Source: Isurus oxyrinchus (Eukaryota). From it: DNA of 64,000 nt. The stretch is from the NCBI GenBank assembly GCA_026770705.1, contig JANJGN010000052.1:4092001-4156000 (forward strand), read 5' to 3'. Position numbers and translations under genes: made by a program. Under the pieces are notes generated by a model. The model did not search any database and was not told the DNA's origin. It saw only the letters and a program-made list of their open reading frames with translations. Position 1 is the first letter of the stretch, and the number at the start of each line of letters is the position of its first letter. Of this stretch, positions 4,578-55,589 are shown one piece after another.

Positions 4578-4617
4578 ATGATCGGGAAATCTTACTTCCT
4601 CCTGTCACTTCTCCAAG
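4578..4617 (+). CDS. Siglec gene A leader exon (MIGKSYFLLSLLQ, phase 1)
   Basis: Acceptor at 4534-4535, ACAATG, hydrophobic stretch, CAAG|GTAATA donor; joins V exon to give ...LLQVGLSQ/EW. Confidence 0.8.
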
Positions 4618-10690: not shown

Positions 10691-10807
10691 GTGTCCTGTA
10701 GATGGTCCACACTGCAGCCACTGTGCCCCAGTGATGGAGGGAGTGGATATCGAGTCTAGTGGATCTACAAATTATCCAGATTTAAATATTGATATTTCTC
10801 TCCCCAG

Positions 10808-11176
10808 TTGGACTGTCACAAGAATGGGAAAGTAACACTCCACGAGAGGTGACAGCGCAGGAAGGTTCATGTGTACAGATTCCATGTCATTACAATTACC
10901 CATCACATTTGTTAGAGAAAACACGTGTCGGAATCTGGAATATGAGGAGGGACAAATGGAATACATTGTCTACAGCCTTTCACTCCAAGGATCACAGTCA
11001 CGAGTTACCACGGTTCCACCATCGGACCCGGCTGTCTGGAGACCTGAAAGATGGTGACTGTTCCCTGATTATAAACAACATCAGACGGGGAGATGCAGGA
11101 TTTTTTTTTTTCAGAATAGAATTTGACAATGGTCGGAGCCACAACTATTATCCTGTAACCCAGCTTCACGTTTCTG
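10808..11176 (+). CDS. Siglec gene A V-set exon V1
   Basis: 369 nt, phase 1-1, CCCCAG/GTAAGT; Siglec hallmarks W near the N-terminus, GSCVQIPC, GDLKDGDCSL and FFFRIE with the essential Arg. Confidence 0.93.
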
Positions 11177-11527
11177 GTAAGTGCTATGTTATAATTACTC
11201 AACAATTCACATTCAACACTCAATGGGAAATAACACAAACTGTGATGTTTACATATTAACACAAAACACAGCTTATTTTAACACATTGTCTGATTCTCAA
11301 TAACCTGGTGATGGCTTCCAGTTCAGTCCTAAAGCAACGTCTAATACTCACTTTAATATCAATGATGATGAACATTAACTGTATTATCAGGTTACCACTC
11401 CCATCAATCTCTCCTGTCCTGTTTAAAAGTCTGACGTATCGATAAAAGAAAGATGTGCATTTCTGCAGCGCAATTTACCACCTCCCTATTACAGTAATCT
11501 CCTCCTTTATCTTCATCCACGGCAACA

Positions 11528-12555: not shown

Positions 12556-13290
12556 TGTAGGAACATAAGAAATAGGGACAGGAGCAGGCCATTCGGCCCC
12601 TCAAGCCTGCTCTCACTGATCTGGTTGTGGCCTTAACTCCATTCTCCTGCCTGTCCCCCAAACCCTTGACTCCCTTGTCGATCAAAAACCTGCCTCACTC
12701 AGCCTTGAGTCTATTCAATGGCCCAGCCTCCACTGCTCTCTGGGGAAGAGAATTCCACAGGCTAGCGCCCCTCTGAGAGAGGAAATTCCTCCTCATCTCA
12801 GTCTTAAATGGGAGAGGCCTCATTCCGAAACTGTGCTCCCTGGTTCTAGATTCCCCCACGAGGGGGAAACATCCTCCCAGCATCCACCCTGTCAAGCCCC
12901 CTCGGAATCGGATATGTTTCAATAAGGTCACCCCTCATTCTTCTAAACTCCAATGGATACAGGCCCAACCTGCTCAACATTTCCTCACAGGACAAACCCT
13001 TTAATCCCAGGAATCAGCCCAGTGAAGCTTCTCTGAACTGCCTGTACACAATGATCCTGTTACAATCTCACTAACGCCCTGTGCAGCTGTTGCAAGACTT
13101 CCCTCCTTTTATACTCCATCCCTTTGCAATAAAGGCCAACATTCCACTTGCCTTCCTCATTCCGTGGTGTTCCTGAATGCTGACTTTCTGTGATTCATGT
13201 ACAAGGACACCCAGATCCCTCTGTACTGCATTCTGCATCCTGTCTCCATTTAAATAATATCCTGTTTTTCTATTCTTCCTGCCAAAATAA
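12556..13290 (-). mobile_element. CR1 LINE 3' fragment
   Basis: VQRDLGVLVHESQK and FKTEMRRNFLSQR...LWNSLPQRAVEA; duplicated at 48760-49490. Confidence 0.88.
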
Positions 13291-13406
13291 TTTGTTGCCA
13301 TTCTCCTCAGTATTGACCATCCCCCCAATTCAGCCTCATCAGTAAATTTTGAGTCTAGTGGATCCACAAACCATCCAGAGTTAAATATTAATATTTCTCT
13401 CCCCAG

Positions 13407-13775
13407 CTGAACCCTCACAAGAGTGGAAAGGTGACACTCCACGAGAGGTGACAGCGCAGCAAGATTCGTGTGTACTGATTCCGTGTCATTACAGTTATCC
13501 ATCGTGTCTGGAAAACCAACCGCGAGGTGGAGTCTGGTTTAATAATGAGGAACAGATTTCCTGGGCTCCCATTGCCTTTCACTCCAAGGATCACAGTCAC
13601 GAGTTACCACGGTTCCGCCATCGGACCCGGCTGTCTGGAGACCTGAAAGATGGTGACTGTTCCCTGATTATAAACAACATCAGACGGGAAGATGCAGGAC
13701 CTTATTTTTTCAGAATAGAATTTGACAATGGTCCGAGCCATAACTATTACCCTGTAACCCAGCTTCACGTTTCTG
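13407..13775 (+). CDS. Siglec gene A V-set exon V2
   Basis: 369 nt, phase 1-1, open; AEPSQEWKGDTPREV...DSCVLIPC...GDCSL...DAGPYFFRIE. Confidence 0.93.
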
Positions 13776-14588
13776 GTAAGTGCTGTGTTATAATTACTCA
13801 ACAATTCACATTCAACACTCAATGGGAAATAACGCAAACTGTGACGTTTACATATTAACACAAAACACAGCTTATTATAACACGCTGTCTGATTCTCAAT
13901 AACCTGCTAATAGCTTCCAGTTCAGTCCTAAAACAACCTCTAATACTCACTTTAATATCAATGATTAAATGTATTGACTGTGTCCATCAATGTTATCAGG
14001 TTATCCACTTACATCAATCTCCCTAATCCTGTTTAAAATTCTTACATATCAACAAATGAAAGATTTGCATTTCTATAGCGCCTTTCAACACCTCTGGACG
14101 TCGCAAATGGATTCACAACCATTGAAATAATTGTTGAAATGTAGCCCTTGTTGTAATATAGGAAACACAGCAGCCAACATGTGCACAGGAAGCTCCCAGA
14201 AACAGCAATGTGATCAATAACCTGATCATCTGCTTTAAATGCCGGTTCAGTGATTGGTTCAAATGGATTCTCTCCTGGTGGCGACAGGATAGAATTTAAA
14301 TCTGGCAGATTTCAGAGAAAGTAACAAGCCAGTGTGTCAGGAACTGTGAGCTGCTCCCCCGCCCTCACCTGGGATTGTCAATTCAATTGTCTCAAAGTGG
14401 AAGTGAATTCATCTGAGAGACAGAAATTCCACTAAGTCTGAAAATAGGAAATTCTCTCCTGATCATTGTAACCTCTCAGATCTGATATCATCCTTGTAAA
14501 ATTGCTTTCTCTTGTGGGACTGTGCTTTCTATTTAAACTGATGCTTCATGTTATATTTCTCTAAAAGGATCCATTCTCCGTCTGTTAG

Positions 14589-14885
14589 ATTTCACAGATA
14601 AACCCACGATATTCCCTGCTGAAATTATTGCAGGAAAGCGTGTGGATGTAAGCTGCACCTTCAACACAACGTGCAATGGAACAGCAGCACCTGTCTTAAC
14701 CTGGGACACTCCCACTGACGTACCTGGATCAGTCTCAAACACTGTAACTCAGCATGGTGTCACTCTGACCTATACTTCTGTTCTGACCCTGATCCCATCA
14801 CTCAAACACCACGGACACACTCTCAGCTGCAGAGTGAGATATCCATCTGTTTCATCGGAGCTGACCCTTATGCTAACTGTAAAAT
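14589..14885 (+). CDS. Siglec gene A Ig domain following V (C2-1)
   Basis: 297 nt, phase 1-1; DKPTIFP...VSCTFNTTC...LTW...HHGHTLSCRV, including the extra Cys for the V-C2 interdomain bond. Confidence 0.93.
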
Positions 14886-15254
14886 GTAAGTATGGATTCC
14901 CTTCATTCTATATTAGCTGTAATAGGATACAATGTGCAGAGCAAGATCCCAAAAACATCACTTGAAGACAAAACAGGTCCTTTTTTATTAGTGATATTGA
15001 CCAGGGAGAGCTCTTCCTGTATTGAGCCTTGGGATTGTTTGTGCCTACCTGATAGGGCAGAGGGGGCCAAGGTTGAACTTAAAAGACAATATAGGATAAT
15101 ATAAATATTGTCTTCATTGATGTCAAAGATTTTGGGGGAGATGTAGTATAAAAGTTTAATATTAACAATGTAAATAGATAGTATTTATCATCAGTTACTC
15201 AAGGTCACATGAGAATAGAACACGGAGAGAGATAGTTCTCTTGATACCTAGGTA

Positions 15255-17330: not shown

Positions 17331-17429
17331 AGCCTTATCTTTTGCCCTGATGTGCTGGGCTCCCCCTTCATTGAGGATGGGGATATTTGTGGATTCCCCT
17401 CCTCCAGTGAGCTAATTGTCCGTTACCAT

Positions 17430-18430
17430 TGGATACGAGCATTAGTGGACTGTGTTAGACCATTATCGAAAATGAAAGCCGGACTCCAGTATGGCCTCAC
17501 TATGATGGATATGACAACTCGATTTCCAGAGACCATCCCTTTAGGAACAATTACAGCTAAAGTAGTAATAGGGAAGTTAACCCAATTTTTTACCCATTAT
17601 GGATTACCGCTGGAGATCCAGTCAGATCAAGGTTCCATCTCTATGTCTTAAAATTTTCCGAACATAATGAGTAATTTGGGTATAAAACAGTTAAAGTCCA
17701 CAGCATATCATCCATAGACACAGGGATCTTTAGAGAGGGACCAACAAACACTCAAAACAATGATTGAAGCTATTGTCATGAACTCCCCATGACTGGGACA
17801 AAGGACTGGATTTTCTTGTATTTCCCACACGAGATTCACCAACTGAATCGGCAGGTTTTAGTCTTTTTGGAATAACTTATGGACACGAGATAAGAGGCTG
17901 TCTGAAATACATCAAAGAAAGATATTCCGGACAGAGGGATGAATCCTCTATTTCAGATGATGTGTCCATGTTTCAGGAACGGCTCATAGGAGCCTCCAAA
18001 GTGGCACAAGAACATCTTATAGTTTCTCAAACAGAAATGAAGGAATGGGGCAGACAGGCAAGCTGTGACCCGAACATCACAACCAGGGGGATGACGTGTT
18101 AGTATCATTGCCTTGGCAGGGGGAGCCTCTGAAAGCGCGGTTCAGTGGTCCCCACAAGGTAATTAGGAGGGTTGGTCAAGTAAGTTATTTGATAGACACC
18201 CCAGATTGTAGAATAAAGAATCGGCTGTGACACATCAATATGTTAAAACGATACCATCGTATGGAGGGAGGTAAAAAGGAGCAGGTATTTCATTTCCAAC
18301 CAGATTCTGCATAGATTACAGAAAGGTTAATGCAGCAATAAAACCAGATTCCTACCCAATCCCCTGTTTAGAAGATGGTATTGACGGGGTTGGCAGTGCC
18401 ATGTTCCTTACTGAGATAAATTTGTTGGTA
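17430..18430 (+). mobile_element. Gypsy (Gmr1-like) integrase followed by RT fragment
   Basis: VDCVRPL...TRFPETIPL...IQSDQGS, ARFSGPHKV, HINMLKRYH, then CIDYRKVNAAIKPDSYPIP from about 18308. Confidence 0.8.
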
Positions 18431-19659: not shown

Positions 19660-19941
19660 ATGCTCCACAGAATCTCTCATTTACTTCTCTTGATATGATT
19701 AACGCTTCATCGATCAATATAATTGAGGGGAATTCTGCAGTGATAATCTGCTCTGTCGAGAGCTTCCCAGCTTCTAACCTGACGTGGCGACATCTTAATG
19801 TCCCAATGAACAGAACAAGTTCCAACAATGAGCTGTGGTTGGTGATTCCTCACCTTACATCCAGGGACACTGGAGACTATCAGTGTGTGGCAGAGAATGA
19901 ACATGGAGCAGTGGAGGGGTTCATAACCATCACTGTGGAAT
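19660..19941 (+). CDS. Siglec gene A C2-2 exon
   Basis: 282 nt, phase 1-1; YAPQNL...EGNSAVIICSVESFPASNLTW...DTGDYQCVAENEHG. Confidence 0.93.
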
Positions 19942-21811: not shown

Positions 21812-22087
21812 ATCCCCCACAGGAGACGATGGTGTCCATCAGCAGATCCTCAGGTGGGATAAGAGTGGGAAGCAATATCACATTAACCTGCTCCAGTGAA
21901 AGTGTCCCACCGATATCTCATTACACCTGGTTCAGGATCGAGGGGAACACCAGCACCCAGTTAAACACAAGTAGCCGCACTCTCTCCTTCACTCCTGTAA
22001 CACGGGAGAATGATGCAGGTTTCTACTGCACAGCGAGGAACCCGGTGGGTAACAGCACCTCCAACATCACCCACCTGAACGTACAAT
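21812..22087 (+). CDS. Siglec gene A C2-3 exon
   Basis: 276 nt, phase 1-1; YPPQET...GSNITLTCSSESVPPISHYTWFR...DAGFYCTARNPVG. Confidence 0.93.
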
Positions 22088-23117: not shown

Positions 23118-23411
23118 ATAAGCCGGAGATTTCCCAGCAGTCGGAGTGCACTCGGAGGTCAGAGGGGGTCACCTGCGTCTGTGTGGCCAACTCCAACCCA
23201 CCCGGAGACCTCACCTGGCACCTGCCCAGTGCCAACATCAGTGGTAACCAAAAAAACGGAGGTTTTGTGTCGTGGCAGGTCAGAGATGGGCATCTGGTGA
23301 CTGGTTCCCTCACCCTGATGAGACCCCAGGATGAGGGGGGAGTGATGGCATCCTGCTCGGTTCAAAACCCACACGGGGAAGCCATGTTCAAGATGTATCT
23401 GTGGGTCAAAG
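23118..23411 (+). CDS. Siglec gene A membrane-proximal C2-4 exon (MAG domain-5-like)
   Basis: 294 nt, phase 1-1; YKPEISQQSECTRRSEGVTCVCVANSNPP...HLPSANIS...VTGSLTL...ASCSVQNPHG, with the C...CxC...SNP pattern of MAG/CD33-related proximal domains. Confidence 0.92.
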
Positions 23412-24295: not shown

Positions 24296-24392
24296 GTAGA
24301 GACTCCAGTAAATGGACAGTAGGATTGTTCACGGCTGGGATCATGTTGAGTGTTTTCCTGGCTGGAATCTTCATCTTCATCTGTGTGAGAAA
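24296..24392 (+). CDS. Siglec gene A transmembrane exon (GRDSSKWTVGLFTAGIMLSVFLAGIFIFICVRK), uncharged
   Basis: TTTTACAG acceptor, AA|GTAAGT donor, phase 1 to 2. Confidence 0.9.
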
Positions 24393-24509
24393 GTAAGTCT
24401 GAAGATTTAACTTGATTTTAATATAAACATTTGTTTAGGATTAATTGGACAGTTTTTACAAAGGGCCAGCACAGGCACGATGGGCTGAGTGGCTTCCTCC
24501 CGAGCTGTG

Positions 24510-24975
24510 AGATTTTAAATTCTTTCATCGAATGTGACTGTCACTGGCGTGGCCAATACTAATTGCCCATTCCCTAAATGCCCCTTGAGAATGAGGTGGT
24601 GAGCTGCCTTCTTGACCCGCTGCAGTCCATGTGGTGTAGGTACACCCACAGTGCTGTTAGAGAGGGAGCTCCAGGATTTTGACCCAGCGACAGTGAAGGA
24701 ACGGTGATATATTTCCAAGTCAGGATGGTGAGTGACTTGGAGGGGAACTTCCAGGTGGTGGTGTTCCCATGTGTCTGCTGCCCTTGTCCTTCTAGATGGT
24801 AGAGGTCGTGGGTTTGGAAGGTGCTGTTGAAGGAGCCTTGCTGAGTTGCTGCAGTGCATCTTGTATATGTTACACACACTGCTGCCACTGTGTGTTCGTT
24901 GTGGAGGGAGTGAATGTTTAATGTGGTGGATGGGGTGTAGATCAATCGAGCTGCTTTGTCCTGGATGGTGTCGAG
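24510..24975 (-). mobile_element. LINE 3' fragment (copy at 27050-27510, part of the cassette duplication)
   Basis: CNIYKMHCSNSARLLQQHLPNPRPLP...SFTVAGSKSW; same family as 31370-31745. Confidence 0.8.
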
Positions 24976-25115
24976 ATTCTAGATTCTGTGCTTTGTGCAG
25001 AAGTGATTTAAAGAGACAGTCCAGTCATTGGTGTAAGGTTACAGTGGGCTCTGTGTCTGTGCTGCACTGACTCTTTGCTATGTGATAACCACAGTGTGAT
25101 ATTGTGTTATTGCAG

Positions 25116-25197
25116 GAGAAAGACAGCGATGGAGGAGAGAGTTTCAGGGACCAGTGACATTGCATTGACCCCCAGTTCACTCTCTGTGAAGCACCAG
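25116..25197 (+). CDS. Gene A cytoplasmic exon 1, cassette a (RKTAMEERVSGTSDIALTPSSLSVKHQ)
   Basis: TGCAG acceptor, CAG|GTACAG donor, 82 nt, phase 2 to 0. Confidence 0.82.
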
Positions 25198-25717
25198 GTA
25201 CAGGAGCTGTTTACACTCACTCCAAAGCTTCAATCTCAGTGTGTAGACAACACATGTCCCAGATTCCCTGCCCAGTTACCCACTGATTTGTACCTGTGGA
25301 GTCAGCAATGGTTCAGTATCATGCTGTCTCTCTGTTATGACACAGCAACTGGTAAAGGCTGTTGTTTAAAAACCCAGAGGGAAACTTTAAACAACTGTCA
25401 TAACCTATATTTCCCAGTGGAATGTTTGAGATGCATCTCTAAATTCAGGAATAAGACCACCAGTTCTGGAGATGGGTTTATATCAAACTAAATGAGACAT
25501 ATATTAATTTACACAAGTTAAACATATGCACATGGTTACAAACTAGTATTATCATAACTTTTTAACAAATTCTCAAACTAATCTCCTCTAAGACAACCCA
25601 TAGTCTTTAAGCAGATTCCAGGCATTTTCACCTCACAAGTTCCAGTTTCTCTCTCTATCTCAACCTCCCTTTCTTTCTCTCTCTTTCTCTCTCTCTCATC
25701 CTCTCTCTGATTACAAG

Positions 25718-25795
25718 GTGCATGTTAATGAGCTTCACACCAGAAACTTGAGTGAAGAATCCAAGCCGTCACTCACCAGAGCCATTACCGAGAGA
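25718..25795 (+). CDS. Gene A possible cytoplasmic exon 2, cassette a (VHVNELHTRNLSEESKPSLTRAITER)
   Basis: Pyrimidine tract + AAG acceptor, 78 nt, phase 0-0; weak donor GTGCGA. Confidence 0.45.
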
Positions 25796-25802
25796 GTGCG
25801 AG

Positions 25803-26105
25803 ACTGACAGCGGGTCAGTACTGAGGGAGTGCTGCACAGTCGGAGGGTCAGTACTGAGGGAGAGTTGCACCGTCGGAGGGTCAGTACTGAGGAAGCGCTG
25901 TACTGTCGGAGGGTCAGTACTGAGGGAGCGCTGCACCATCGGAGGGTCAGTACTGAGGGAGCGCTGCACTGTCAGAGGGTCAGTACTGAGGTTTTTGCTG
26001 CGCTGTCGGAGGGTCAGTACTGAGGGAGTGCGAGACTGACAGAGGGTCACTATTGAGGATGTGCTGCACTGTTGGAGGGTCAGTCCTGAGGGAGCACTGC
26101 ACTGC
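25803..26105. repeat. 33-bp minisatellite (gagggtcagtactgagggagtgctgcactgtcg)
   Basis: Directly visible; also at 28930-29097, 38007-38326, 54700-55212, 61070-61302 and 62995-63268. Confidence 0.93.
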
Positions 26106-26249
26106 CATAGGTGGTTTCTTTCATAAGACATGGGAGAGAGAGTTAAACCCACTGAGACACGACTGACATTAACGAAGCTGCACAATAATTTAACCCTATC
26201 AGTGCCAGTAAATGATGTGAGGATGTCTTCTGTTTCCATTTCTCTGTAG

Positions 26250-26498
26250 GGTAAACAGAACGTGCTGATTACTGAGCCCCGGAACACAACCAGAGACACA
26301 ACTAACGAGGGGGAGACCCCAACTCCCCGGGGTCTCTCTGAAGGTGCAGTGGGAGGCGATGCTGGACTTGGGAACCCCGGCAAACCTGAAGAGTTTCTCT
26401 ACGCCAATCCCCAAGTTTTGAGGGTGTCCAGTGGTGATGGGTCTGTCCACAGGGAAGAGGAGACGGAATACGCACAGATCAGGTTTGAGCATAACTGA
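26250..26498 (+). CDS. Gene A terminal exon, cassette a (...FLYANPQV...TEYAQIRFEHN*)
   Basis: CTGTAG acceptor, phase 0, 249 nt; ITSM-like TEYAQI with a degenerate proximal ITIM; AATAAA at 27023-27028. Confidence 0.85.
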   Translation, partial: GKQNVLITEPRNTTRDTTNEGETPTPRGLSEGAVGGDAGLGNPGKPEEFLYANPQVLRVSSGDGSVHREEETEYAQIRFEHN

Positions 26499-27645
26499 AT
26501 GAGAAATGGGGACTGGGAGTGAGGAGGAGTGGGCGTGGGGGTAGGGATTGAGATTCCTGGGAACAGGAAACAACCCACTGGGGGAGAGGGGGAGAGAGGG
26601 AGGAAGGGATGGAATTGGGCTACGGTTGGTGTGGTTTGGAATGAAATGCTTCTCCAGAGAGGACTGGATGCTGAGCCATTGGGGAGTGAGATTCACTGTC
26701 TCTCTCTCTCTCTCTCTCTTCCTCTCTGTCTCTCTCTTTCTTTCTGTGTCAGTCTCTCATTCTCTCTCTCTTGCTCCTCCTTTAAGATGACCGTTAATGA
26801 CTGACTTTGATGACTCAGCTGTTGGTCTCCTGTCCCTAATATCTCCTCATGTGCCTCAGAGTCAGGTGAAATGTGACTAACAATCCCCGGATGAGCCTTG
26901 GGACATTTTGCTACATTGAAGGTGCTATATAAATGCAAGTTGTTGCAGTAACTCTGATCTGCTTCTATTAACAATGGAACCACAGAGGTTCCTTCGACAG
27001 GGCGTGTGTGCAGCAGGGTCACAATAAATACATTGAGCTGTGAGATTTTTCATTCTTACATCGAATGTGGCTGTCACTGGTGATGTCCGCATTGATGCCA
27101 ATCTCTAACTGCCCTTGAGAAGGTGGTGGTGAGCTGCCTTCTTGACCCGCTACAGTGCATGTGGTGTAGGTACACCCACAGTGCTGTTAGAGAGGGAATT
27201 CCAGGATTTTGACCCAGCGACAGTGAAGGAACGGTGATATATTTCCAAGTCAGGATGGTGAGTGACTTGGAGGGGAACTTCCAGGTGGTGGTGTTCCCAT
27301 GTGTCTGCTGTCCTTGTCCTTCTAGATGGTAGAGGTCGCGTATTTGGAAGGTGCTGTTGAAGGAGCCTTGCTGAGTTGCTGCAGTGCATCTTGTAGATGG
27401 TACACACACTGCTGCCACTGTGTGTTCATGGTGGAGGGAGTGAATGTTTAATGTGGTGGATGTGGTATGGATCAATCGGGCTGCTTTGTCCTGGATGGTG
27501 TCGAGCGTCTTGATTCTGTGCTTTGTGCAGAGGTGATTTAAAGAGAGAGTCCAGTCATTGGTGTAAGGTTACAGTGGGCTCTGTGTCTGTGCTGCACTGA
27601 CTCTCTGCTATATGATAACCACAGTGTGATATTTTGTGATTGCAG

Positions 27646-27727
27646 GAGAAAGACAGCGATGGAGGAGAGAGTTTCAGGGACCAGTGACATTGCATTGACC
27701 CCCAGTCCACTCCCTGTGAAACACCAG
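27646..27727 (+). CDS. Gene A cytoplasmic exon 1, cassette b
   Basis: Near-identical to 25116-25197 with splice sites intact. Confidence 0.8.
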
Positions 27728-28842
27728 GTACAGGAGCTGTTTACACTCACTCCAAAGCTTCAATCTCAGTGTGTAGACATCATATGTCCCAGATTCCCAG
27801 CCCAGTTACCCACTGATTTGTACCTGTGGAGTCAGCAATGGTTCAGTATCATGCTGTCTCTCTGTTATGACACAGCAACTGGTAAGGGCTGTTGTTTAAA
27901 ATCCCAGAGGGAAACTTTAAACAACTGTCGTAACCTATATTTCCCAGTGAAATGTTTGAGATGCAGCTCTAAATTCAGGAATAAGACCACCAGTTCTCAA
28001 GATGATTTTATATCAATCTAAATGAGACATTTATTAATTTTCACAAGTTAAACATATGCACATGGCTACAAACTAGTATTATCATAACTTTATAACAAAT
28101 TCTCAAACTAATCTCCTCCAAGACAACCCATAGACTTTAAGCAGACACCAGGCAAAGCATTTTCACCTCACAAATTCCAAATGAGGCTCCTTTCACTTTG
28201 GTTCCTTTGCAGACAAGTGTAGGATTACAGCTGCTTTGCTGTTACAAGCCTCTGCTCTGCACACACAAAACTGCACAAGTTATACCCAGCTCTTGAGTGT
28301 GAAGAAGATGGAGATTGATGGGCTCTTGATTGGTAAAGGGATCAATGGTTAGGAGAGAAGGTGGGAGAATGGGGTTTGTGAAACATATCAGCCATGTATG
28401 AATGGTGGAGCAGACTCGATGGACCGAATGGTCTAATTTCTCCTCCTATGTCTTATGGTCTTATGGCTTCTGTTTGAAGGTAAATTCGCAATGTATCATC
28501 AGGACCTTTGAACTCCATCTCTTCCAATCCCCTTTCATCGTATCAATTTTATTAGTAATATAAACGTTGATTGGTTTAAGATTTCAATCTCAGACTTTGA
28601 ATGTTTTATTTAAAAATACAAATTACCACTTTACCTCTTTGTTTACATCTCAAAACTACTATACATCAAAGCACACAGACTGGCTGTCTTTAATCCAATT
28701 TAAATACACACAGACACACACACAGACTAAACCTCTGTTTAAAAAGACAGTTTGCATTTATAATACAAACATTAATAGATTAATAACACTCTGTCTCTAT
28801 CCCTCCTCTATCTCTCTCTCTCATCCTCTCTCTGATTACAAG

Positions 28843-28920
28843 GTTCATGTTATTGAGCCTCACACCAGGCACCTGAGTGCAGAATCCAAGCCGTCACTCA
28901 CCAGAGCCATTACCGGGGGA
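28843..28920 (+). CDS. Gene A possible cytoplasmic exon 2, cassette b (VHVIEPHTRHLSAESKPSLTRAITGG)
   Basis: 78 nt, phase 0-0, donor GTGGGG. Confidence 0.5.
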
Positions 28921-29216
28921 GTGGGGGACTGACAGCGGGTCAGTACTGAAGGAGTGCTGCACTGTCGGAGGGTCAGTACTGAGGGAGTGCTGCACTGACA
29001 GAGGGTCAGTACTGAGGGAGCGCTGTATTGTCGGAGGGTCAGCACTGAGGGAGTGCTGCACTGTTGGAGGGTCAGTACTGAGGGAGTGCTGCACTGCCAT
29101 AGGTGGTGCCTTTTATCCGATAGGAGAGAGAGAATTAAACAAGTCTGCACAATAATTTAACCCTATCAGTACCAGTAAATGATGTGAGGATGTCTTCTGT
29201 TTCCATTTCTCTGTAG

Positions 29217-29465
29217 GATGAACAGAACGTGCTGATTACTGAGCCCCGGAACACAACCAGAGACACAACTAGTGAGGGGGAGACCCCAGCTCCCCGGGAT
29301 CTCTCTGAAGGTCCAGTGGGAGGCGATGTTGGACATGGGAACTCAGACAAACCTCACGAGCTTCTCTATGCCAACATCAACTTTTCAAAGCTGCCCGGCG
29401 GTGACAGGACTGTGCACAGGAGCGAGGACACGGAATACGCACAGATCAGGTTCCAGAAAAACTGA
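29217..29465 (+). CDS. Gene A terminal exon, cassette b (...LLYANINF...TEYAQIRFQKN*)
   Basis: 249 nt, phase 0; ITIM LLYANI plus ITSM-like TEYAQI, the CD33-related Siglec tail layout. Confidence 0.88.
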   Translation, partial: DEQNVLITEPRNTTRDTTSEGETPAPRDLSEGPVGGDVGHGNSDKPHELLYANINFSKLPGGDRTVHRSEDTEYAQIRFQKN

Positions 29466-29654: not shown

Positions 29655-31750
29655 ACAAGGTGAGATGAGAGTGACTGCCTTTGACATCAAGGCTGCATTT
29701 GACCGAGTGTGGCATCTAGGAGCCCGAGCAAAACTGGAATCAATGGGAATCAGGGGTGGTACGAAAGTATAATAATTTGCTTAATATTTTCCTGGTTTGT
29801 TGTAAACTAGGTTTATGGGTGTGAGTGTAGATGGGTCTGTCTGTGTGGCTTAATTACACCTGGAGTCAGGTAGACTGCAAGTTTGAGATTATCAAAAGAA
29901 GCTAGATGTAGAAATATAATTGAAATGCTAGTAAGTGAACATGGAGGCTGACTTAGCATGTAAGGTGTGAGGGGAATTTGCATTTTTAGATAAGTGACGG
30001 GATTGTTTGGATTTCAAAGGGCTGTTGGTCTGTTTACAACGAGGCCGATATGCAAGGCAAAGGAGTGTGTTTATTTTTCCCAAAGGTTATTGACAACATT
30101 GGCAACATGAAAGTTTTTATATTATGGGAAATGTATAATTCCAAAGACATATGGAACAATGAAATTTACATATCAAAGAGAGAGGAACATAAACAAAGGA
30201 GAATGAAAGGCTATTTTGGGGACCATGTAAAATCTAACAAGAGTGTGTGAATCAGCCTTGAAGAAGCCTCCAGGCATTTGTCCATAGGTCTGTTATGTTC
30301 AGTGACTATAGATTGAGAAAGCCATTAGGAATTCCACTCTCAAGTGTGTACTGTGTTAACTTGCTGGTTCTGTTTTTAAATCTAAAATCTATTTTGGACT
30401 GTTGCCTTAAATGGGGTTGTACTGCTCATCTCCAGACTTCCCAATGCCTGTCCACCATCTTTAAGGTTAATTAGGAAGTTTAGGATTTGTTATAGTAGTA
30501 ACCGTATCCTTATGTGTGTGCTTGAAATCTTGTATTTTGTTAATAAATATTGACATTTAATTTTTAAGATCTCTAAATGTCTTGGTTGACACGTTACTCC
30601 TGAATTCAGTGCACACATCTCATAATAAATACAAATTGCAAAACCGTTGTGAGAGTGTGACCAAGTTTCCCTTGTGGATTTGGTCCCCTGGCACACATCA
30701 TCTACCACATCATAACAGAGGGAAAACTCTCCACTGGTTGGAGCCATACCCAGCACAAAGGAAGATAGTTGTAGTTGTTGGAGGTCAATCATCTCAGTTC
30801 CAGGACATCACTGCAGGAGTTACTCAGGGTAGTGTCCTCGGCCCAACCATCTTCAGCTGCTTCATCAATGACCTTCCTTCCATCATAAGGACAGAAGTGT
30901 GGATGTTCACTGATGATTGCACAATGTTCAGCACCATTCACGGCTCCTCAGATACTGAAGCAGTCCTTGTCCAAATGCAGCAAGAGCTGGACAATATCCA
31001 GGCTTGCGCTGACAAGTGTCAGGCAATGACCATCTCCAATAAGAGAGAATCTAACCATCGCCCTTTAATGTTCAATGGCATTACCATTGCTGAATCCCCC
31101 ACTATCAACATCCTGGGGATTACTATTGACCAGAAACTGAACTGGACTAGCCATATAAACACTGTGGCTACAAGAGCAGATCAGTGTCTGGGAATCATGC
31201 AGTGAGTAACTCACTCCAGACTCCCCAAAGCCTGTCCACCACCTTCAAGGCACAGGTCAGGAGTGTGATGGAAGACTCTCCACTTGCCTGGATGAGTGCA
31301 GCTCCAACAAGATTCAGTAAACTCAAAACCACTCAGGACAAAGCAGCCCCGCTAGATCCACTCTCTGCACAACCGACACACAGTAGCAGCAGTGTGTACC
31401 ATCTACAAGGTGCACTGCAGGAACTCACCAAGACTCCTTAGGCAGCACCTACAAACACACAACCACTACCATCTCGAATTACAGGGCAGCAGATACATGG
31501 TAACAGCACCACCTGGAAGTTACCCTCAAAGTCACTCACCCCCATCCTGACTTGGAAATATACGGCCGTTCCTGCACTGTCACTGGGTCCAAATCCTGCA
31601 ATTCCCTCCCTAACAGCACTGTGGGTGTACCTACCCCACATGGACTGCAACAGTTCAAGACGGCAGCTCACTACCACATTCTCAAGGGCTATTAGGGATG
31701 GGCAATAATTCTGGCCTAGACAGCGCCACCCACATCCCATAAATGAATAT
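29655..31750 (+). mobile_element. CR1/L2-class LINE RT fragment interrupted by a solo LTR (about 29757-30717)
   Basis: GVTQGSVLGPTIFSCFINDL...MFTDDC; the LINE sequence gggaatcagggg|...|aaaactctcc is split by a TG...CA insert. Confidence 0.85.
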
Positions 31751-48520: not shown

Positions 48521-49610
48521 GAGATCTCTGCACTCCTCTAATTCCGGTCTCTTGAGCTACCCCCGATTCCCATCGTTGTGCCATTGGAAGCCATGCCTTC
48601 TGCTGCCTGGGGCCCCGAGCTCTGGAATTTTATCTCTACACCTCTCCCCACCTCTCCCTCTCTATCTCTCTCTCTCTCACTCTCTCTCTCTCACTCTCTC
48701 CCTCTCTCTCTCTCGCTATCCCTTTTATCCCTCTTTTAATATTCTTCATAACACAACAACATAAGAACATTAGAAATAGGAACAGGAGCAGGCCATTCGG
48801 CCCCTCGAGCCTGCTCTCGCTGATCTGGTTGTGGCCTTAACTCCATTTTCCTGCCTGTCCCACAAACCCTTGACTCCCTTGTCGATCAAAAACCTGCCTC
48901 ACTCAGCCTTGAGTCTATTCAATGGCCCAGCCTCCACTGCTCTCTGGGGAAGAGAATTCCACAGGCTAGCGCCCCTCTGAGAGAGGAAATTCCTCCTCAT
49001 CTCAGTCTTAAATGGGAGAGCCCTCATTCCGAAACTGTGCTCCCTGGTTCTAGATTCCCCCACGAGGGGGAAACATCCTCCCAGCATCCACCCTGTCAAG
49101 CCCCCTCGGAATCGGATATGTTTCAATAAGGTCACCCCTCATTCTTCTAAACTCCAATGGATACAGGCCCAACCTGCTCAACATTTCCTCACAGGACAAA
49201 CCCTTTAATCCCAGGAATCAGCCCAGTGAAGCTTCTCTGAACTGCCTGTACACAATGATCCTGTTACAATCTCACTAACGCCCTGTGCAGCTGTTGCAAG
49301 ACTTCCCTCCTTTTATACTCCATCCCTTTGCAATAAAGGCCAACATTCCACTTGCCTTCCTCATTCCGTGCTGTTCCTGAATGCTGACTTTCTGTGATTC
49401 ATGTACAAGGACACCCAGATCACTCTGTACTGCATTCTGCAGCCTGTCTCCAGTTAAATAATATCCTGTTTTTCTATTCTTCCTGCCAAAATAATTTGTT
49501 GCCATTCTCCTCAGTATTAACCATCCTCCAAATTCAGCCTCATCTGTAAATATCGGGTTCAGTGGATCCACAAACCATTCAGAGATAAATATTGAGATTT
49601 CTCTCCCCAG

Positions 49611-49978
49611 TTGGACTGTCACAAGAGTGGAAAGGTGACACTCCACGAGAGATGACAGCGCAGGAAGGTTCGTGTGTACAGATTCCATGTCATTACAGTT
49701 ATCCATCGTGTCTGGAAAACCAACCGCGAGGTGGAGTCTGGTTTAATAATAAGAAACAGATTCCCTGGGCTCCCATAGCCTTTCACTCCAAGGATCACAG
49801 TCACCAGTTACCACGGTTCCGCCATCGGACCCGGCTGTCTGGAGACCTGAAAGATGGCGACTGTTCCCTGATTATAAACAACATCTGACGGGAAATGCAG
49901 GACCTTATTTTTTCAGAATAGAATTTGACAATGGTCCGAGACATAACTATTACCCTGTAACCCAGCTTCACGTTTCTG
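49611..49978 (+). pseudogene. Siglec gene C V-set exon, disabled
   Basis: Close paralog of V2/V1; AGA to TGA at 49886-49888 plus a 1-nt deletion (368 nt). Confidence 0.92.
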
Positions 49979-50791
49979 GTAAGTGCTGTGTTATAATTAC
50001 TCAACAATTCACATTCAACACTCAGTGGGAAATAACACAAACTGTGATGTTTACATATTAACACAAAACACAGCTTATTATAACACACTGTCTGATTCTC
50101 AATAACCTGGTGATAGCTTCCAGTTCAGTCCTAAAGCAACCTCTAATACTCACTTTAATATCAATGATTAAATGTATTGACTGTGTCCATCAATGTTTTC
50201 GGGATATCCACTCCCACTGATCTCCCTAACCCTGTTTGACAGTCTTACATATCGACAAAAGAATGATTCACATTTCTTTAGCACCTTTCACCACCTCTGT
50301 CGGTCGCAAATGGATTCACAACCAATGAAATAATTCCTGAAATGTCACCCTTGTTGTAATATGGGAAACACAGCAGCCAATTTGTGCACAGGAAGCTCCC
50401 AGAAACAGCAATGTGATCAATAACCTGATCATCTGCTTTAGATGCCGGTTCAGTGATTGGTTCAAATGGATTCTCTCCTGCTGGGATCTGGATAGAATTT
50501 AAATCTGGCAGATTTCGGAGAAAGTAACAAGCCAGTGTGTCAGGAACTGTGAGCTGATCCCCCACCCTCACCTGGGATTGTCAATTCAATTGTCTCAAAG
50601 TGGAAGTGAATTCATCTGAGAGACAGAAACTCCACTAAGTCTGAAAATAGGAAATTCTCTCCTGATCATTGTAACCTCTCAGTTCTGATATCATCCTTGT
50701 AAAAGTGCTTTTTCTTGTGGGACTGTGATTTCTATCTGAACTGATGCTTCACGTTATATTTCTCTAAAAGGATCCATTCTCTGTCTGTTAG

Positions 50792-51088
50792 ATTTCACAG
50801 ATAAACCCATGATATTCCCTGCTGAAATTATTGCAGGAAAGCGTGTGGATGTAAGCTGCACCTTCAACACAACGTGCAATGGAACAGCAGCACCTGTCTT
50901 AACCTGGGACACTCCCACTGACGTACCTGGATCAGTCTCAAACACTGTAACTCAGCATGGTGTCACTCTGTCCTATACTTGTGTTCTGACCCTGATCCCA
51001 TCACTCAAACACCATGGACACACTCTCAGCTGCAGAGTGAGATATCCATCAGTTTCATCGGAGCAGACCCTCGTACTAACTGTGCAAG
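50792..51088 (+). pseudogene. Siglec gene C C2-1 exon (open frame)
   Basis: 297 nt, nearly identical to 14589-14885. Confidence 0.92.
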
Positions 51089-51417
51089 GTAAGTATGGAC
51101 ATCCTTCATTCTACATCAGCACACCCTCAGCGCTGACCCTCTGACAGTGCAGCCCGTTCTCAGTGTCCACATTCTCATGCCTCTCAAAGTGCTTCACAGT
51201 CCATAGAAGTTAACTGATCTTTATTTGATTGTTGCTGAATGAAGAGACAAGCTGTTTAAACTTTACATCTCACACACATTATTTTCCATGGCAACACCTT
51301 CGAGACCACTTGCCAATCTATCAGCACTCTCTTCCCTTTAAATATAAATTGTTGTTCACTCTCTGTTGGTAAACATGCGATCTGTCTTGTTGAGTCCTGC
51401 CCTGATATCTGAATATC

Positions 51418-51556
51418 ACAATGAACAGAACAAGTTCCAACAATGAGCTGTGGTTGGTGATTCCTCACGTTACATCCAGGGACACTGGAGACTATCAGTG
51501 TGTGGCAGAGAATGAACATGGAGCAGTGCAGGGATTCATAACCATCACTGTGGAAT
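51418..51556 (+). pseudogene. Siglec gene C 3' half of C2-2 exon
   Basis: MNRTSSNNELWLVIPHVTSRDTGDYQC...ITVE|GTGAGT matches 19806-19941; 5' half and acceptor missing. Confidence 0.9.
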
Positions 51557-53231
51557 GTGAGTGTACACAGATTTCATCATCTGTCTCAGATTGAAACATG
51601 ACACAAACACAGACAAATATACAGACCTAAATAGACACCTGCAGATACACAATCCCTCGTATATGAGCACACACAAAGACACAAACAAACACACTAGCAC
51701 AATGCTCCCCAGTGGGTTACCTGACCTCCCTCAGTGCTGCACCGGAGAGTTGACCTGGATTCTGAGATTTCTGTTCCCTTTCATGTTTATAGAAGAATAT
51801 GGAAATTGCAAAGTCTATTACAGACACTCAGATGCATAGAGACACTCACAGATACTCTCTGTCTCTCCAACTCTCTATCCTCCTTTAAGAAGCTTCCTGA
51901 AACCTAACCCTTTGACCAGTCAATTGTCCCAACTCCTCCTTACGTGAATCCGTGTGAAATTTTGTTTGAGTATCTGAGAGTAAGAGAGAGGTGGAGAGGT
52001 TTAGGAAGGGAATTCCTGTTGGTGAAAAGCTTACATCATGTTCTCACTTTTCCAGTGCCCGTATTTCACCTGATGTCCAATGTCCTTGTTTATAATAGGG
52101 ATTGCCTATGTAAACGTCACGCTGTAGTTACACTGTGGTGGCACGGTAGCACTTAACCCTTGCATCTCTCAGCTTTTCAAGCAAATCCACTTCCCAGTTT
52201 GCTCCACAAGCTGTGAGTTCATCAGAATTAAATTATTTCTCAAACGATAGATTTGATGTCATTTTATTGAAAACTTCCTCAGTGCCTCCCTGAAGGGTTT
52301 ACACTCTCTGGGAAGCAGGAATAGGCTGGATGTTGGGGAGCTCATCTTTTCCCAGAGAGTAGGGATCCTCGGGAATGTGCTGTCAGTGGGTGTGGTGGTT
52401 GCTGTTTCTATGTTGCCTTCAAGAGGGATCTGGAGTGGTTACTGACTGGGGGAGAGATCATGGAAGCGGAGAATGATACAGCACAGGAGGAGGCCATTCA
52501 GCCCATGGTGCCTGTGCCAGGTCTTTCAATGTTCTATCCAATCAGATCCACTAACCACCACTCCACTTTGCCCCCATCTTCCTCCTTCAAGTGTTTATCC
52601 AATTCCCCTTTTGAAAGTTCCAATTGAATCTGCTTCCACCGCCCTTTCAGGCAGCACCTTCCAGATCACAACAACTCACTCTGTCAAAACAAATTCTCCT
52701 CATCTCCCCCTCCGGTTCATCAATCTGTGTCCCTCTGGTTACCGACCCTCCTGCCCCTTAAATACATCGATCCTGTTCACATCACCCACTCCCTGTGGGA
52801 GTGAGTTCCACATTCTCCTCTCTCTCTGGGTAAAGATTGGAACTGTCTATTAAGCGGGGGGTGTAAGTCCGTGGGGGAGTCCATCTCGATCCTGCCCGAT
52901 TCGCACACACGTCCGAGATGGATTTCCACCCTGCACTAAACGTTTCCAGAATTTTCTACAGCACAATCCTGTACACAGCGATGGAGAGAAACATTGGACA
53001 GGGAGTCCAACAACACAATGATCCATTCTCACCAATGTTCCACGCTAAGGGGAAAGTTCCGATTGTCCACTCTTAGAGTGTTTACAATGAAAACATTCAT
53101 TCCACATTGAATCCCAGTGGATGGGTCAATATTACAGCAAATGTTGCAGTGATATGAAGCTTGATTGTTCAGCCAGAGTGAGAGATTGAAAGCGGAGAGT
53201 CAGTGATGATTTCTTTCTGTGTGTTCTCTAG

Positions 53232-53371
53232 ACAGTGGAGGAGAGATTCTGCACGTGATCCTGATCCTGGGAATACGAGCTGTGATATTCCTTGTGGCTG
53301 TGGTTATCACTATCGCTGGAGTCTGTGTCTGGGAGAGACAAACAGTGAAAGGAAGTCGACAGACTGTTTGA
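53232..53371 (+). pseudogene. Siglec gene C transmembrane exon with intramembrane Arg (SGGEILHVILILGIRAVIFLVAVVITIAGVCVWERQTVKGSRQTV*)
   Basis: CTCTAG acceptor, phase 1; long hydrophobic run with a central R; short Tyr-free tail; downstream 54215-54335 is homologous to the gene A 3'UTR at 29493-29620; AATAAA at 54353. Confidence 0.8.
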
Positions 53372-53394
53372 AGCTTTGTACAGCAACAATCTCA

Positions 53395-53995
53395 TCATGG
53401 AACAGAAGGACGGCATTCGGCCCATCGAGTCCATTCTGTCTCTCTGTAAAGCAATACAGTCAGTCCCATTCCCCCGCTCTATCCCCGTATCCCTGTGAGT
53501 TTATTTCCCCTCATGTGTCCATCCAATTTCCGTTTGAAATCGTTCATCGTCTCCACTTCCACCATCCTCGTAGGCAGCGAGTTCCAGCTCATTACCACTC
53601 GCTGTGTAAAAAAGTTCCTTCTCACATCACCCCCTGTCCAAATCCTTCAATCTGTGTCCCCCAGTCCTTGTCCCATCAGCTAATGGTAACAGCATCTCTT
53701 TGTCTTCCTTATCTAAACCCATCATCATCTTGTACACCTCAATCAGATCCCCCCTCAATCTCCTTTGCTCCAAGGAGAACAACCCCAGCTTCTCCAACCC
53801 AACCTTGTAGCTAAAATCCCTCATCCCTGGACCCATTCTGCTCAATCTCCTCCCTAACCTCTCAAGGACCCTCACTTCCTTCCCAAAGTGAGGAGACCAG
53901 AACTGGACACAATACTCTAGTTGTGACCTAACCAGAGCTTTATAAATGTTCAGCATAACCTCCCTGTGTTTGTTCTCAATCCCTCGATTTATGAA
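53395..53995 (-). mobile_element. CR1 3' fragment
   Basis: LNIYKALVRSQLEYCVQFWSP...LGLFSLEQRRLRGDLIEVYK. Confidence 0.9.
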
Positions 53996-55589
53996 AAGCT
54001 TATTCTTTCCATCAGCACAAACAGCAATTTCCAAGCGGACTCCCATCAGCAGACTGAGTGCAATGAAACATCGGCATGCCTGCTTCTTAATGTACGGAGA
54101 GAAACCTGGAACGAGAGATTCTCCTTCTTCTCCTCAGCAAGCTGAAACTTTTCCTTATACCTGGTGCTCCCCAGTCCTGCTGTGTGGACACATCATAACC
54201 ACGGCATTGTCTGGCTGTGTGCAGCCAACATGGTCGAATAGGAATGAACAGAAATGTGACGTTGCTAAACTCTGTTCTCTGATTGGAATGTGCTTTCTGA
54301 ATGCTGCACCTTTTTCATGCTGCGATAGATTGTAAGAAGCATTTGGGTTATGAATAAAATTACATTGATTAACACAAGTGATAAAAAGTTCAGCCTGTTC
54401 TGTAGATATTTATAGATTAAAATTCATATTTTGCTGCCAAATTCTTGCCTCAAAGACATTACTTCATATTGTCATGTTTTCCAATCAGATGATTTCCTGT
54501 GCCCATCTTTATAATAGAAATTTCCAAAGTATACATGTCACATTGCAGCTGCACACACTCCTGCCAGTGGGTGGTGCGATATGAAGGCTGCCTTGCTGCT
54601 CAGAAACAGTGAGAAATATTCCTGTTTTTGCATGAACTTCATGTGTGCATGAGACACAGGCATCAGATGCAATTTTGTACAATTTGTACAATGTTCTTTA
54701 GACAGCGCAGCACTCCCTCTGTTCAAACCCTCCAACAGTGCAGCACTCCCTCAGTACTGACCCTCCGACAGTGCAGCTCTACCTCAGTTCAAACCCTCCG
54801 ACAGTGTAGCACTCCCTCAGTTCAAACCCTCCGACAGTGCAGCTCTACCTCAGTTCAAACCTTCCGACAGTGTAGCACTCCCTCAGTTCAAACCCTCCGA
54901 CAGTGTAGCACTCCCACAGTTCAGACCCTCCGACAGTGCAGCACTCCCTCAGTTCAAACCCTCCGACAGTGCAGCACTCCCTCAGTTCAAACCCTCTGAC
55001 AGTGCAGCACCCCTCAGTTCAAACCCTCCGACAGTGCAGCACTCCCTAAGTACTGAACCTCCGACAGTGCTGCACTCCCTCAGTACTGACCCTCCGACAG
55101 TGCAGCACTCCCTCGGTACTGAACCTTCGACAGTGCTGCACTCCCTCAGTTCAGACCCTCTGACAGTAAAGCACTCCCTCAGTACTGATCCTCCGACAGT
55201 GCTGCACTACCTCACTAATTAGCGACTGGAAGGTTTATGTTCATTTATCTTTATTTTCCATTCCTATTGAGCAATGAAGCTCCTGATTTGCCACCTTTCT
55301 GTACCTCGTCCAATGCTTCTTTTATCAGGACTTCCACATCGATGTGAAAGAGCCATGATGATAGCAGACAGTCGCACAATGGGAATGGCACTAGGCCAGT
55401 GATCCAGAGGCCCAGGTGAATGCTTTGGAGGTAAGGGTTCAAATCCCACCACGGCAGCTGGAGGAATTTAGATTCGATTAATCAATAAATTTAATTGATT
55501 GATACATTTTTTTCTTGTTCATTTCAGGGATGTTGGTGTCGCTGACTAGGCCAGTATTTGTTGCCCATCCCCAATTGCCTTTGAGAACA

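Follow-up and report, generated by a model that had tools for sequence, protein, structure and literature searches.

The 64,000-nucleotide stretch of the shark Isurus oxyrinchus analysed here (the window; contig JANJGN010000052.1, positions 4,092,001 to 4,156,000, forward strand) contains a gene that, judged by the design of its tail, is a CD33-like Siglec lying in a shark Siglec cluster. Its cytoplasmic part is encoded by two tandem cassettes, a and b, each with a first cytoplasmic exon (cyt1) and a last exon. An earlier note on this DNA had proposed that a choice of last exon or polyadenylation (poly(A)) site could switch the receptor between full inhibitory signalling and signalling through an ITSM (switch motif of the immunoreceptor tyrosine-based type) only. 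Our analysis indicates that the two cassettes are probably spliced in series instead, through a 5' splice site inside exon a, giving one tail in which an altered module precedes the inhibitory one. That site, at 26482/26483, was overlooked in the earlier note. The features of the tail region are as follows, in window coordinates and with a caret marking the cut.

24502..27034, forward strand: cassette a, a repeat unit found by self-alignment (intron piece, cyt1a, intron, exon a, truncated 3' untranslated region (UTR))
25116..25197, forward strand: cyt1a exon, 82 nt, phase 2 in and phase 0 out
26250..26482, forward strand: exon a as an internal exon, 233 nt, with FLYANP and TEYAQI; RefSeq models such as P0003 and P0004 connect it with the following cyt1
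26480..26488 (cut 26482/26483), forward strand: 5' splice site inside exon a, CAG^GTTTGA, leaving phase 2 and matching the frame of cyt1b
26483..26498, forward strand: remnant stop-coding end of exon a (stop 26496-26498), used only when the donor is unused
27023..27028, forward strand: AATAAA from a c-type 3'UTR (c being a terminal class of paralog, described below), candidate intronic poly(A) signal; duplication breakpoint 7 nt downstream
27035..~30630, forward strand: cassette b, the terminal unit, found by self-alignment
27646..27727, forward strand: cyt1b exon, 82 nt
29217..29465, forward strand: coding part of terminal exon b, with LLYANI, an ITIM (inhibitory motif of the immunoreceptor tyrosine-based type), plus TEYAQI (ITSM or ITIM-like)
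30542..30629, forward strand: two AATAAA (30542, 30624) that b paralogs share, candidate poly(A) signals for this cassette

The duplication described in the earlier note was confirmed. Between cassettes a and b, the intron before the first cytoplasmic exon is 93.3% identical (568/609), cyt1 96.3% (79/82) and the 5' part of the next intron 95.1% (424/446). The reported divergence within the last exon also held, as 91 of 123 positions are identical in its 3' half versus 117 of 126 in its 5' half, and the motifs (26250-26498 in a, 29217-29465 in b) and the AATAAA at 27023 lie where they had been placed. Unit b carries an intronic insertion of about 600 nt and unit a a longer satellite tract. In contrast, the statement that the two 3'UTRs are unrelated has to be revised: they cannot be aligned within the window, yet in terminal c-type paralogs an a-like UTR is followed by a b-like one (72-75%), and since this c-type UTR, with the same AATAAA, continues into b-like sequence, the UTRs of a and b are related. 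The b cassettes of genes with both units have a distinct downstream UTR (window ~29975-30540) without the AATAAA found at +798 in single-b genes, a difference that can help to assign reads. A direct splice from cyt1a to cyt1b was considered and rejected, because the frame shifts and hits a stop.

The donor CAG^GTTTGA leaves phase 2, which is the phase required by cyt1, and the frame joined from exon a to cyt1b is open. It predicts a tail 216 residues long, whose tyrosines, at 80, 103, 185 and 208, belong in that order to YANP, TEYAQI, LLYANI (the ITIM) and TEYAQI. At the equivalent place exon b reads CAG^GTTCCA, without the G at +5. We sampled 80 ten-kb stretches of the genome, which yielded 131 last-exon copies, those of the window included. 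A G^GTnnG donor was present in 49 of the 50 copies that have another cyt1 downstream. Among the 81 copies without a downstream cyt1, 27 read CAG^ATTCAA (no GT), 51 have GTTCC/AA without the +5 G and two were unreadable; the remaining one is an edge case, its cyt1 following in the adjoining stretch. These counts are based on position (internal versus terminal), because the sequence-based definition of class a itself includes the +5 G; when copies were typed by their UTR the donor was found in 31 of 31. The calculated pairing of U1 with the exon a donor is -6.4 kcal/mol, within the range of the real donors of the gene (-4.3 to -10.2), and that of the c-type site is -1.6. This energy sets c apart clearly and a from b weakly, and the test is crude, since the b site pairs only slightly less well than that of a.

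The use of this donor is apparent in gene models of related sharks. In RefSeq models of the white and the basking shark, the TEYAQIR of a runs directly into the next cyt1 (RKTA...). The 62 proteins fetched contain 19 a-type modules. The next cassette follows in 17 of these, one is joined through the same donor to the b exon (with a short frameshifted end) and one has a terminal c-type end; none of the 62 proteins ends at the stop of a. Six white-shark models have a tail combining a with an ITIM, and three basking-shark genes have stacked YxxP cassettes. One white-shark gene is represented by six isoform models: X1, X2 and X6 contain a and b, X4 and X5 contain b only, and X3 contains a with a short frameshifted end, reached via the donor and not the poly(A) site. 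The alternative isoforms of NCBI generally rest on transcript evidence. Mis-mapping between paralogs could create the b-only models, but not easily X3 or the join from a to cyt1.

These data also bear on the switch proposed in the earlier note, according to which most transcripts would either end at the stop of a and the AATAAA at 27023, or skip to b. Such mutually exclusive last exons would agree with the conservation of the stop-coding end of a in all 43 distinct copies compared, with an AATAAA kept in 43 of 50 a copies, with the U/GU-rich sequence that follows the junction downstream of 27023, and with the white-shark isoforms that carry b only (X4, X5) or a only (X3). Composite terminal exons are, moreover, a known class (PMC4227790, seen in part), and exon a has their structure, with a donor at 26482/26483, a stop at 26496-26498 and then the AATAAA. 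Several observations speak against it as the main mechanism. Only internal copies carry the donor, which terminal c copies have lost. None of the proteins fetched terminates at the stop of a, and the a-only model X3 uses the donor. Exon a is thus no mutually exclusive last exon in the models of two related sharks, where its in-frame donor joins the cassettes. The signal itself has been severed from its native downstream sequence: a breaks 7 nt past AATAAA and passes into sequence of the intron between the transmembrane (TM) exon and cyt1, with an identical junction in all copies aligned. Native cleavage regions typically lie 10-30 nt downstream of the signal, so this breakpoint removed the native one. 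Among the 50 a copies the signal has decayed to AGTAAA in six and is unresolved in one. It lies 541 nt behind the donor, and U1 suppresses polyadenylation over a range of about 1 kb (PMC3826338, in the portion available). Since the signal is cut 7 nt downstream and lies this close behind a donor, poly(A) addition at 27023 is probably minor. Taken as the principal mechanism, we therefore consider the last-exon or poly(A) switch unlikely and probably wrong. What may survive of the earlier proposal is a tail switch within a single gene, as single-tail isoforms may arise through exon skipping (RefSeq X3-X5), less often through poly(A) addition at 27023. In summary, exon a is built like a composite terminal exon, and splicing is likely its main route.

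In the I. oxyrinchus genome, at least 150 matches to exon b were scored of 434 candidates and at least 150 to exon a of 422; the two sets are overlapping families, clustered on few contigs. The expansion of Siglec genes is very large, on contigs C52, C71, C121, C150, C189, C323 and others. On the contig of the window (C52, 4.17 Mb) there are 47 b loci among the matches listed, with a median spacing of about 80 kb and in both orientations. The last exons fall into three classes: b, with YANI; a, with YANP and inside arrays; and c, with YANP or YANT and terminal. An a cassette lies upstream in 13 of the 47 listed b loci of this contig, which were taken regardless of a. Architectures were determined for 69 sampled loci of the same contig, a sample partly chosen by a matches and hence not unbiased: 34 b, 16 a-c, 14 a-b, three a-a-c and two c. 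No ITIM at all was found in 21 of these 69 loci; the ITIM-less tail, therefore, exists chiefly as separate paralogs. Contig C1184 has an a-a-a-a-b array, and across the family paralogs stack one to five cassettes. In one subclade of a-c arrays (L126-L133, L135, L136) no TM or cyt1 exon lies within about 2.8-3.5 kb upstream of a. In the basking shark, P0007, P0048 and P0050 have the same TM and tail exons on a different type of ectodomain, which suggests that tail modules are shared between receptor subfamilies.

The range of architectures across the sampled loci argues that the design is not an artefact of the assembly. A tandem collapse of two haplotypes or paralogs might be suspected given hundreds of near-identical copies, two of which (contig C71) show 100% identity both in the a stretch queried and in the b exon. 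However, the same junction sequence recurs at many independent loci, the 3' halves of a and b differ at synonymous sites (dS ~0.33), and the architecture is present in gene models of two other species; this explanation is effectively refuted. A further alternative is that unequal crossing-over, in a cluster of fast turnover, produced cassette a as a neutral by-product that is mostly skipped or carries idle motifs. The ratio of nonsynonymous to synonymous change (dN/dS) within classes is about 1 (0.67-1.86), the number of a copies varies from 0 to 4, b-only isoform models exist, and in two a copies (L130, C52:3055.7 kb; L140, C189:350.5 kb) a stop falls exactly at the YANP tyrosine. These two belong to different subclades, and their tails would be motif-less. 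Against neutrality, the reading frame is open as far as the donor in 48 of the 50 a exons and both tyrosines are intact in 47, the stacked design occurs in three lamniform genomes of two families, and gain or loss of the donor tracks the position in the array. We regard this explanation as improbable, slightly more so than the poly(A) switch.

The history of the cassettes can be followed in other sharks. Twelve non-lamniform shark proteins (from Mustelus, Rhincodon, Scyliorhinus, Chiloscyllium, Hemiscyllium and Pristiophorus) were retrieved with the b query, the a query returning lamniforms only. All 12 have a single tail with LLYANI or LLYASI and a distal EYAQI-type motif, whose Tyr is replaced in one. 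This result implies that the ITIM is ancestral in sharks and YANP derived, in agreement with the earlier view that b kept the ITIM and a lost it. Between a and b, dS is ~0.33 in the 3' half of the last exon versus ~0.07 in the homogenised 5' half. In the tree of 3' halves, b is split from a and c with support of 100/100, and a forms one side of a branch at 92/76. The depth of this split, together with the homogenised 5' halves, argues that the divergence of a and b did not follow a duplication in this gene. The TM-cyt1 intron of genes with both units is common to single-c genes, not to single-b genes. In the simplest order that these sequences suggest, a lamniform lineage would have lost the ITIM (YANI to YANP), giving a c-type gene; its unit of cyt1, last exon and UTR to 7 nt past AATAAA would have been tandemly duplicated once, giving a-c; and the upstream duplicate would have turned internal, its donor having a G at +5. 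Unequal crossing-over may then have altered the copy number (a-a-c) and placed ITIM-bearing b ends behind a, so that the gene studied here would be an a-b chimera. A second duplication, independent of this one and with a different breakpoint, was observed at L139 (C150:641-651 kb; c-c). There the terminal copy ends two codons prematurely and no donor is present in the upstream one. The change from YANI to YANP may have occurred by a compensated one-base frameshift (+1/-1), as weakly suggested by 8 of 11 matches in the shifted register versus 5 of 12 in register.

What such a tail might signal can be predicted from its motifs. LLYANI fits the relaxed ITIM consensus S/I/V/L-x-Y-x-x-I/V/L (PMC4810170, seen in part), not the strict form with L or V at +3 given in the part of PMC10906256 consulted. 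FLYANP of cassette a is no ITIM, having no I, V or L at Y+3. TEYAQI, common to both cassettes, matches the ITSM consensus T-x-Y-x-x-V/I (PMC10906256, same part), as the earlier note had recognised. In Siglec-3 the ITIM recruits SHP-1 and SHP-2 and the ITSM mainly SHP-2, according to that same part of PMC10906256. YAQI also fits the Csk-binding consensus of the catfish receptor IpLITR 1.1b, Y[TAS][KRQN][MIVR], as given in the available text of PMC4810170. The description of a as ITSM-only was, however, too narrow. Its first-motif Tyr is kept, as YANP or YTNP, together with the distal Tyr in 47 of 50 copies, and in 48 when one copy without the distal Tyr is counted, with P at +3 in all 48. YANP fits YxxP, which is bound by Crk (PMC2689226, abridged view). 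The pair of ITIM and ITSM that recruits SHP-1/2 would be kept in b, and each a module would contribute one more site of the ITSM/Csk type, together with a YxNP to which SH2 domains of adaptors (Crk, Abl or Grb2 type) could bind. YxN is a Grb2 motif and YENP an Abl motif. The a modules would in this way tune inhibition rather than switch it off. On this view, an a-b gene would encode an inhibitory Siglec extended by an adaptor/Csk module, and the receptors without an ITIM envisaged in the earlier note would correspond to the paralogs of c, a-c and a-a-c type.

Transcript data were limited to contigs from four sets, presumed to derive from RNA, that were mapped to the window; a fragment of a long interspersed nuclear element at 27044-27550 dominated the tables of joints and loose ends. 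A contig of set X1 (depth 196.5) joins the end of cyt1 to the start of a b-type last exon, and c-type contigs read through the stop into the UTR (contig set X2 record 9, contig set X3 record 17). Because of these two observations, the exon model of the family and the terminal role of c are supported. Contigs of a type in sets X1 and X5 cover 26416-26469 and none covers 26524-26577, a pattern that fits splicing at 26482 and was not counted as evidence. Neither a spliced nor a polyadenylated form of exon a appeared among the mapped matches listed.

Several points weigh against serial splicing, in addition to the AATAAA retained in most a copies and the two copies with a stop at the YANP tyrosine. 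The join from a to cyt1b was not among the joints listed in the mapping, 130 more joints being unlisted. The U1 pairing of the b site (-5.6 kcal/mol) is only slightly weaker than that of a, other bases around the donor, those of the stop-coding end among them, are as invariant among a copies as the donor itself, and one internal copy (L139) has no donor. Since the a copies share a single origin, the 49/50 count is one evolutionary contrast and not 49 tests. The RefSeq models are predictions, several being isoforms of the same gene, and reads can be mis-mapped between paralogs that are nearly identical. Purifying selection on a receives no support from dN/dS, which is near 1 within classes. Finally, the Asp present in pY-D-x-P, the optimum for Crk (PMC2689226, as far as consulted), is missing from YANP. 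Even so, joining of exon a at 26482/26483 to cyt1b remains the reading we favour.

More tentatively, and with the odds somewhat against it, mackerel sharks may possess an accordion of tails in which zero to four ITIM-less YxNP/ITSM modules precede an ITIM or ITIM-less end, across hundreds of genes and splice forms. If so, the repertoire of the family would be graded, ranging from purely inhibitory signalling to signalling that is driven by adaptors and light on phosphatase, with no charged-TM partner involved. Siglec signalling is usually diversified by exchanging ITIM tails for charged transmembrane anchors, whereas the shark family appears to diversify by stacking tail modules and rewiring the ITIM tyrosine into YxNP. 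It would also be a clean natural case of a 3'-terminal exon turned internal, with the donor gained internally and absent terminally and the poly(A) signal cut past AATAAA. The model yields testable predictions on tail length, motif number and effector choice in the innate immunity of cartilaginous fish. Joined cassette models are already present in RefSeq, uncommented. Full-text literature searches, which gave titles and the beginnings of abstracts and left most subscription journals uncovered, returned no paper on the expansion or the tail stacking, and in the part of it available the whale-shark genome paper has a single mention of Siglec, without this family (PMC8455134).

The remaining exons, bounded by splice sites, encode a leader, two V-set domains, four C2/Ig domains and the TM segment, followed by the tail units.

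4578..4617, forward strand: signal-peptide exon with its ATG at 4578; shark RefSeq Siglec models P0008 and P0010 have a matching N-terminus
10808..11176, forward strand: V-set exon 1, Siglec type, FFFRIE Arg retained (PF07686, PF24518)
13407..13775, forward strand: V-set exon 2, Siglec type, YFFRIE Arg retained (PF07686, PF24518; PDB Siglec-5, E 4.6e-15)
14589..14885, forward strand: C2-set Ig exon 1 (Pfam)
19660..19941, forward strand: Ig exon 2 (Pfam)
21812..22087, forward strand: Ig exon 3 (Pfam)
23118..23411, forward strand: Ig exon 4, below the Pfam cut-off (E 2e-4)
24296..24392, forward strand: TM exon, ending in phase 2, helix without charged residue

Both V exons are above the Pfam cut-offs for PF07686 (V-set) and PF24518 (Ig_CD22). 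The top 18 matches of the second V domain in the PDB are all Siglecs, the best being Siglec-5, CD33 and Siglec-7; bit scores are 58.9-51 for Siglec-5 and CD33, with sialoadhesin and MAG close behind (50.6-48.8). Its YFFRIE aligns with YFFRVE of Siglec-5, so that the essential F-strand Arg is present, and its unusual Siglec cysteines (CVLIPC, DCSL) align as well; the same is true of the first V domain. The C2-set/Ig domains, the single TM segment and the type I topology are those of a Siglec. A Pfam search of the tail exons found no domain. Since close protein relatives were found only in lamniform sharks (white and basking shark), we describe the gene as a mackerel-shark Siglec with a CD33-like tail design. 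The two tandem V-set exons lie in window segments 10747-11484 and 13351-14094 that are 85% identical, both in frame and with the key Arg. Shark RefSeq relatives have 0-8 V domains; the ectodomain is therefore also accordion-like. The intron between Ig exons 1 and 2 contains at 17400-18400 a decayed retroelement-like (integrase-type) sequence, judged by eye. Downstream, a broken paralog occupies 48762-54400. It includes a copy of 12558-14917 (95%) whose V exon, of 368 nt, is frameshifted, an Ig exon truncated at its 5' side (51406-51557) and, of activating type, a different TM exon (~53231-53368) whose helix contains an Arg and which goes with a short tail. A relic of a b/c-like UTR with an AATAAA at 54353 is also present.

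The closest known systems are the inhibitory CD33-related Siglecs (-3, -5, -7, -9). Humans have about ten of these; the shark family has hundreds of copies. Both share a V-set domain with an F-strand Arg, C2/Ig domains and a TM segment, as well as a proximal ITIM followed by a distal ITSM or ITIM-like motif (PMC10906256, in the part seen). The shark tail differs in being tandemly duplicated and, as predicted, serially spliced, with a YANP lineage replacing the ITIM. Channel catfish IpLITR 1.1b, compared with 1.2a, likewise has an extra membrane-proximal, ITIM-less tyrosine region before its distal ITIM/ITSM region; this proximal region recruits Csk and probably Nck, and signals alongside the distal one (PMC4810170, partial text). 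IpLITRs are, however, not Siglecs, and the shark proximal module would be a diverged duplicate of the distal one, present in 0-4 copies among paralogs, with partners predicted from its motifs. As may hold for the shark gene, the L- and S-forms of MAG (Siglec-4) differ in cytoplasmic length and partners (PMC5150538, seen in part); both MAG tails, the long and the short, come from a single gene, which has neither stacked cassettes nor a change from ITIM to YxxP. With composite terminal exons and intronic polyadenylation, exon a shares a donor followed by a stop and by an intronic AATAAA within the ~1 kb range of U1 (PMC4227790, PMC3826338, parts of each). The difference is that the shark intron is a former 3'UTR and that the downstream exons duplicate the same unit, a terminal exon having turned internal. 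Finally, paired Siglecs (Siglec-5/14, -11/16) have homogenised shared parts and distinct signalling parts, and the low dS in the 5' halves and high dS in the 3' halves of exons a and b follow the same pattern, although in the shark the contrast lies between tail modules of one gene and among inhibitory-type paralogs, and not between an ITIM and a charged TM segment.

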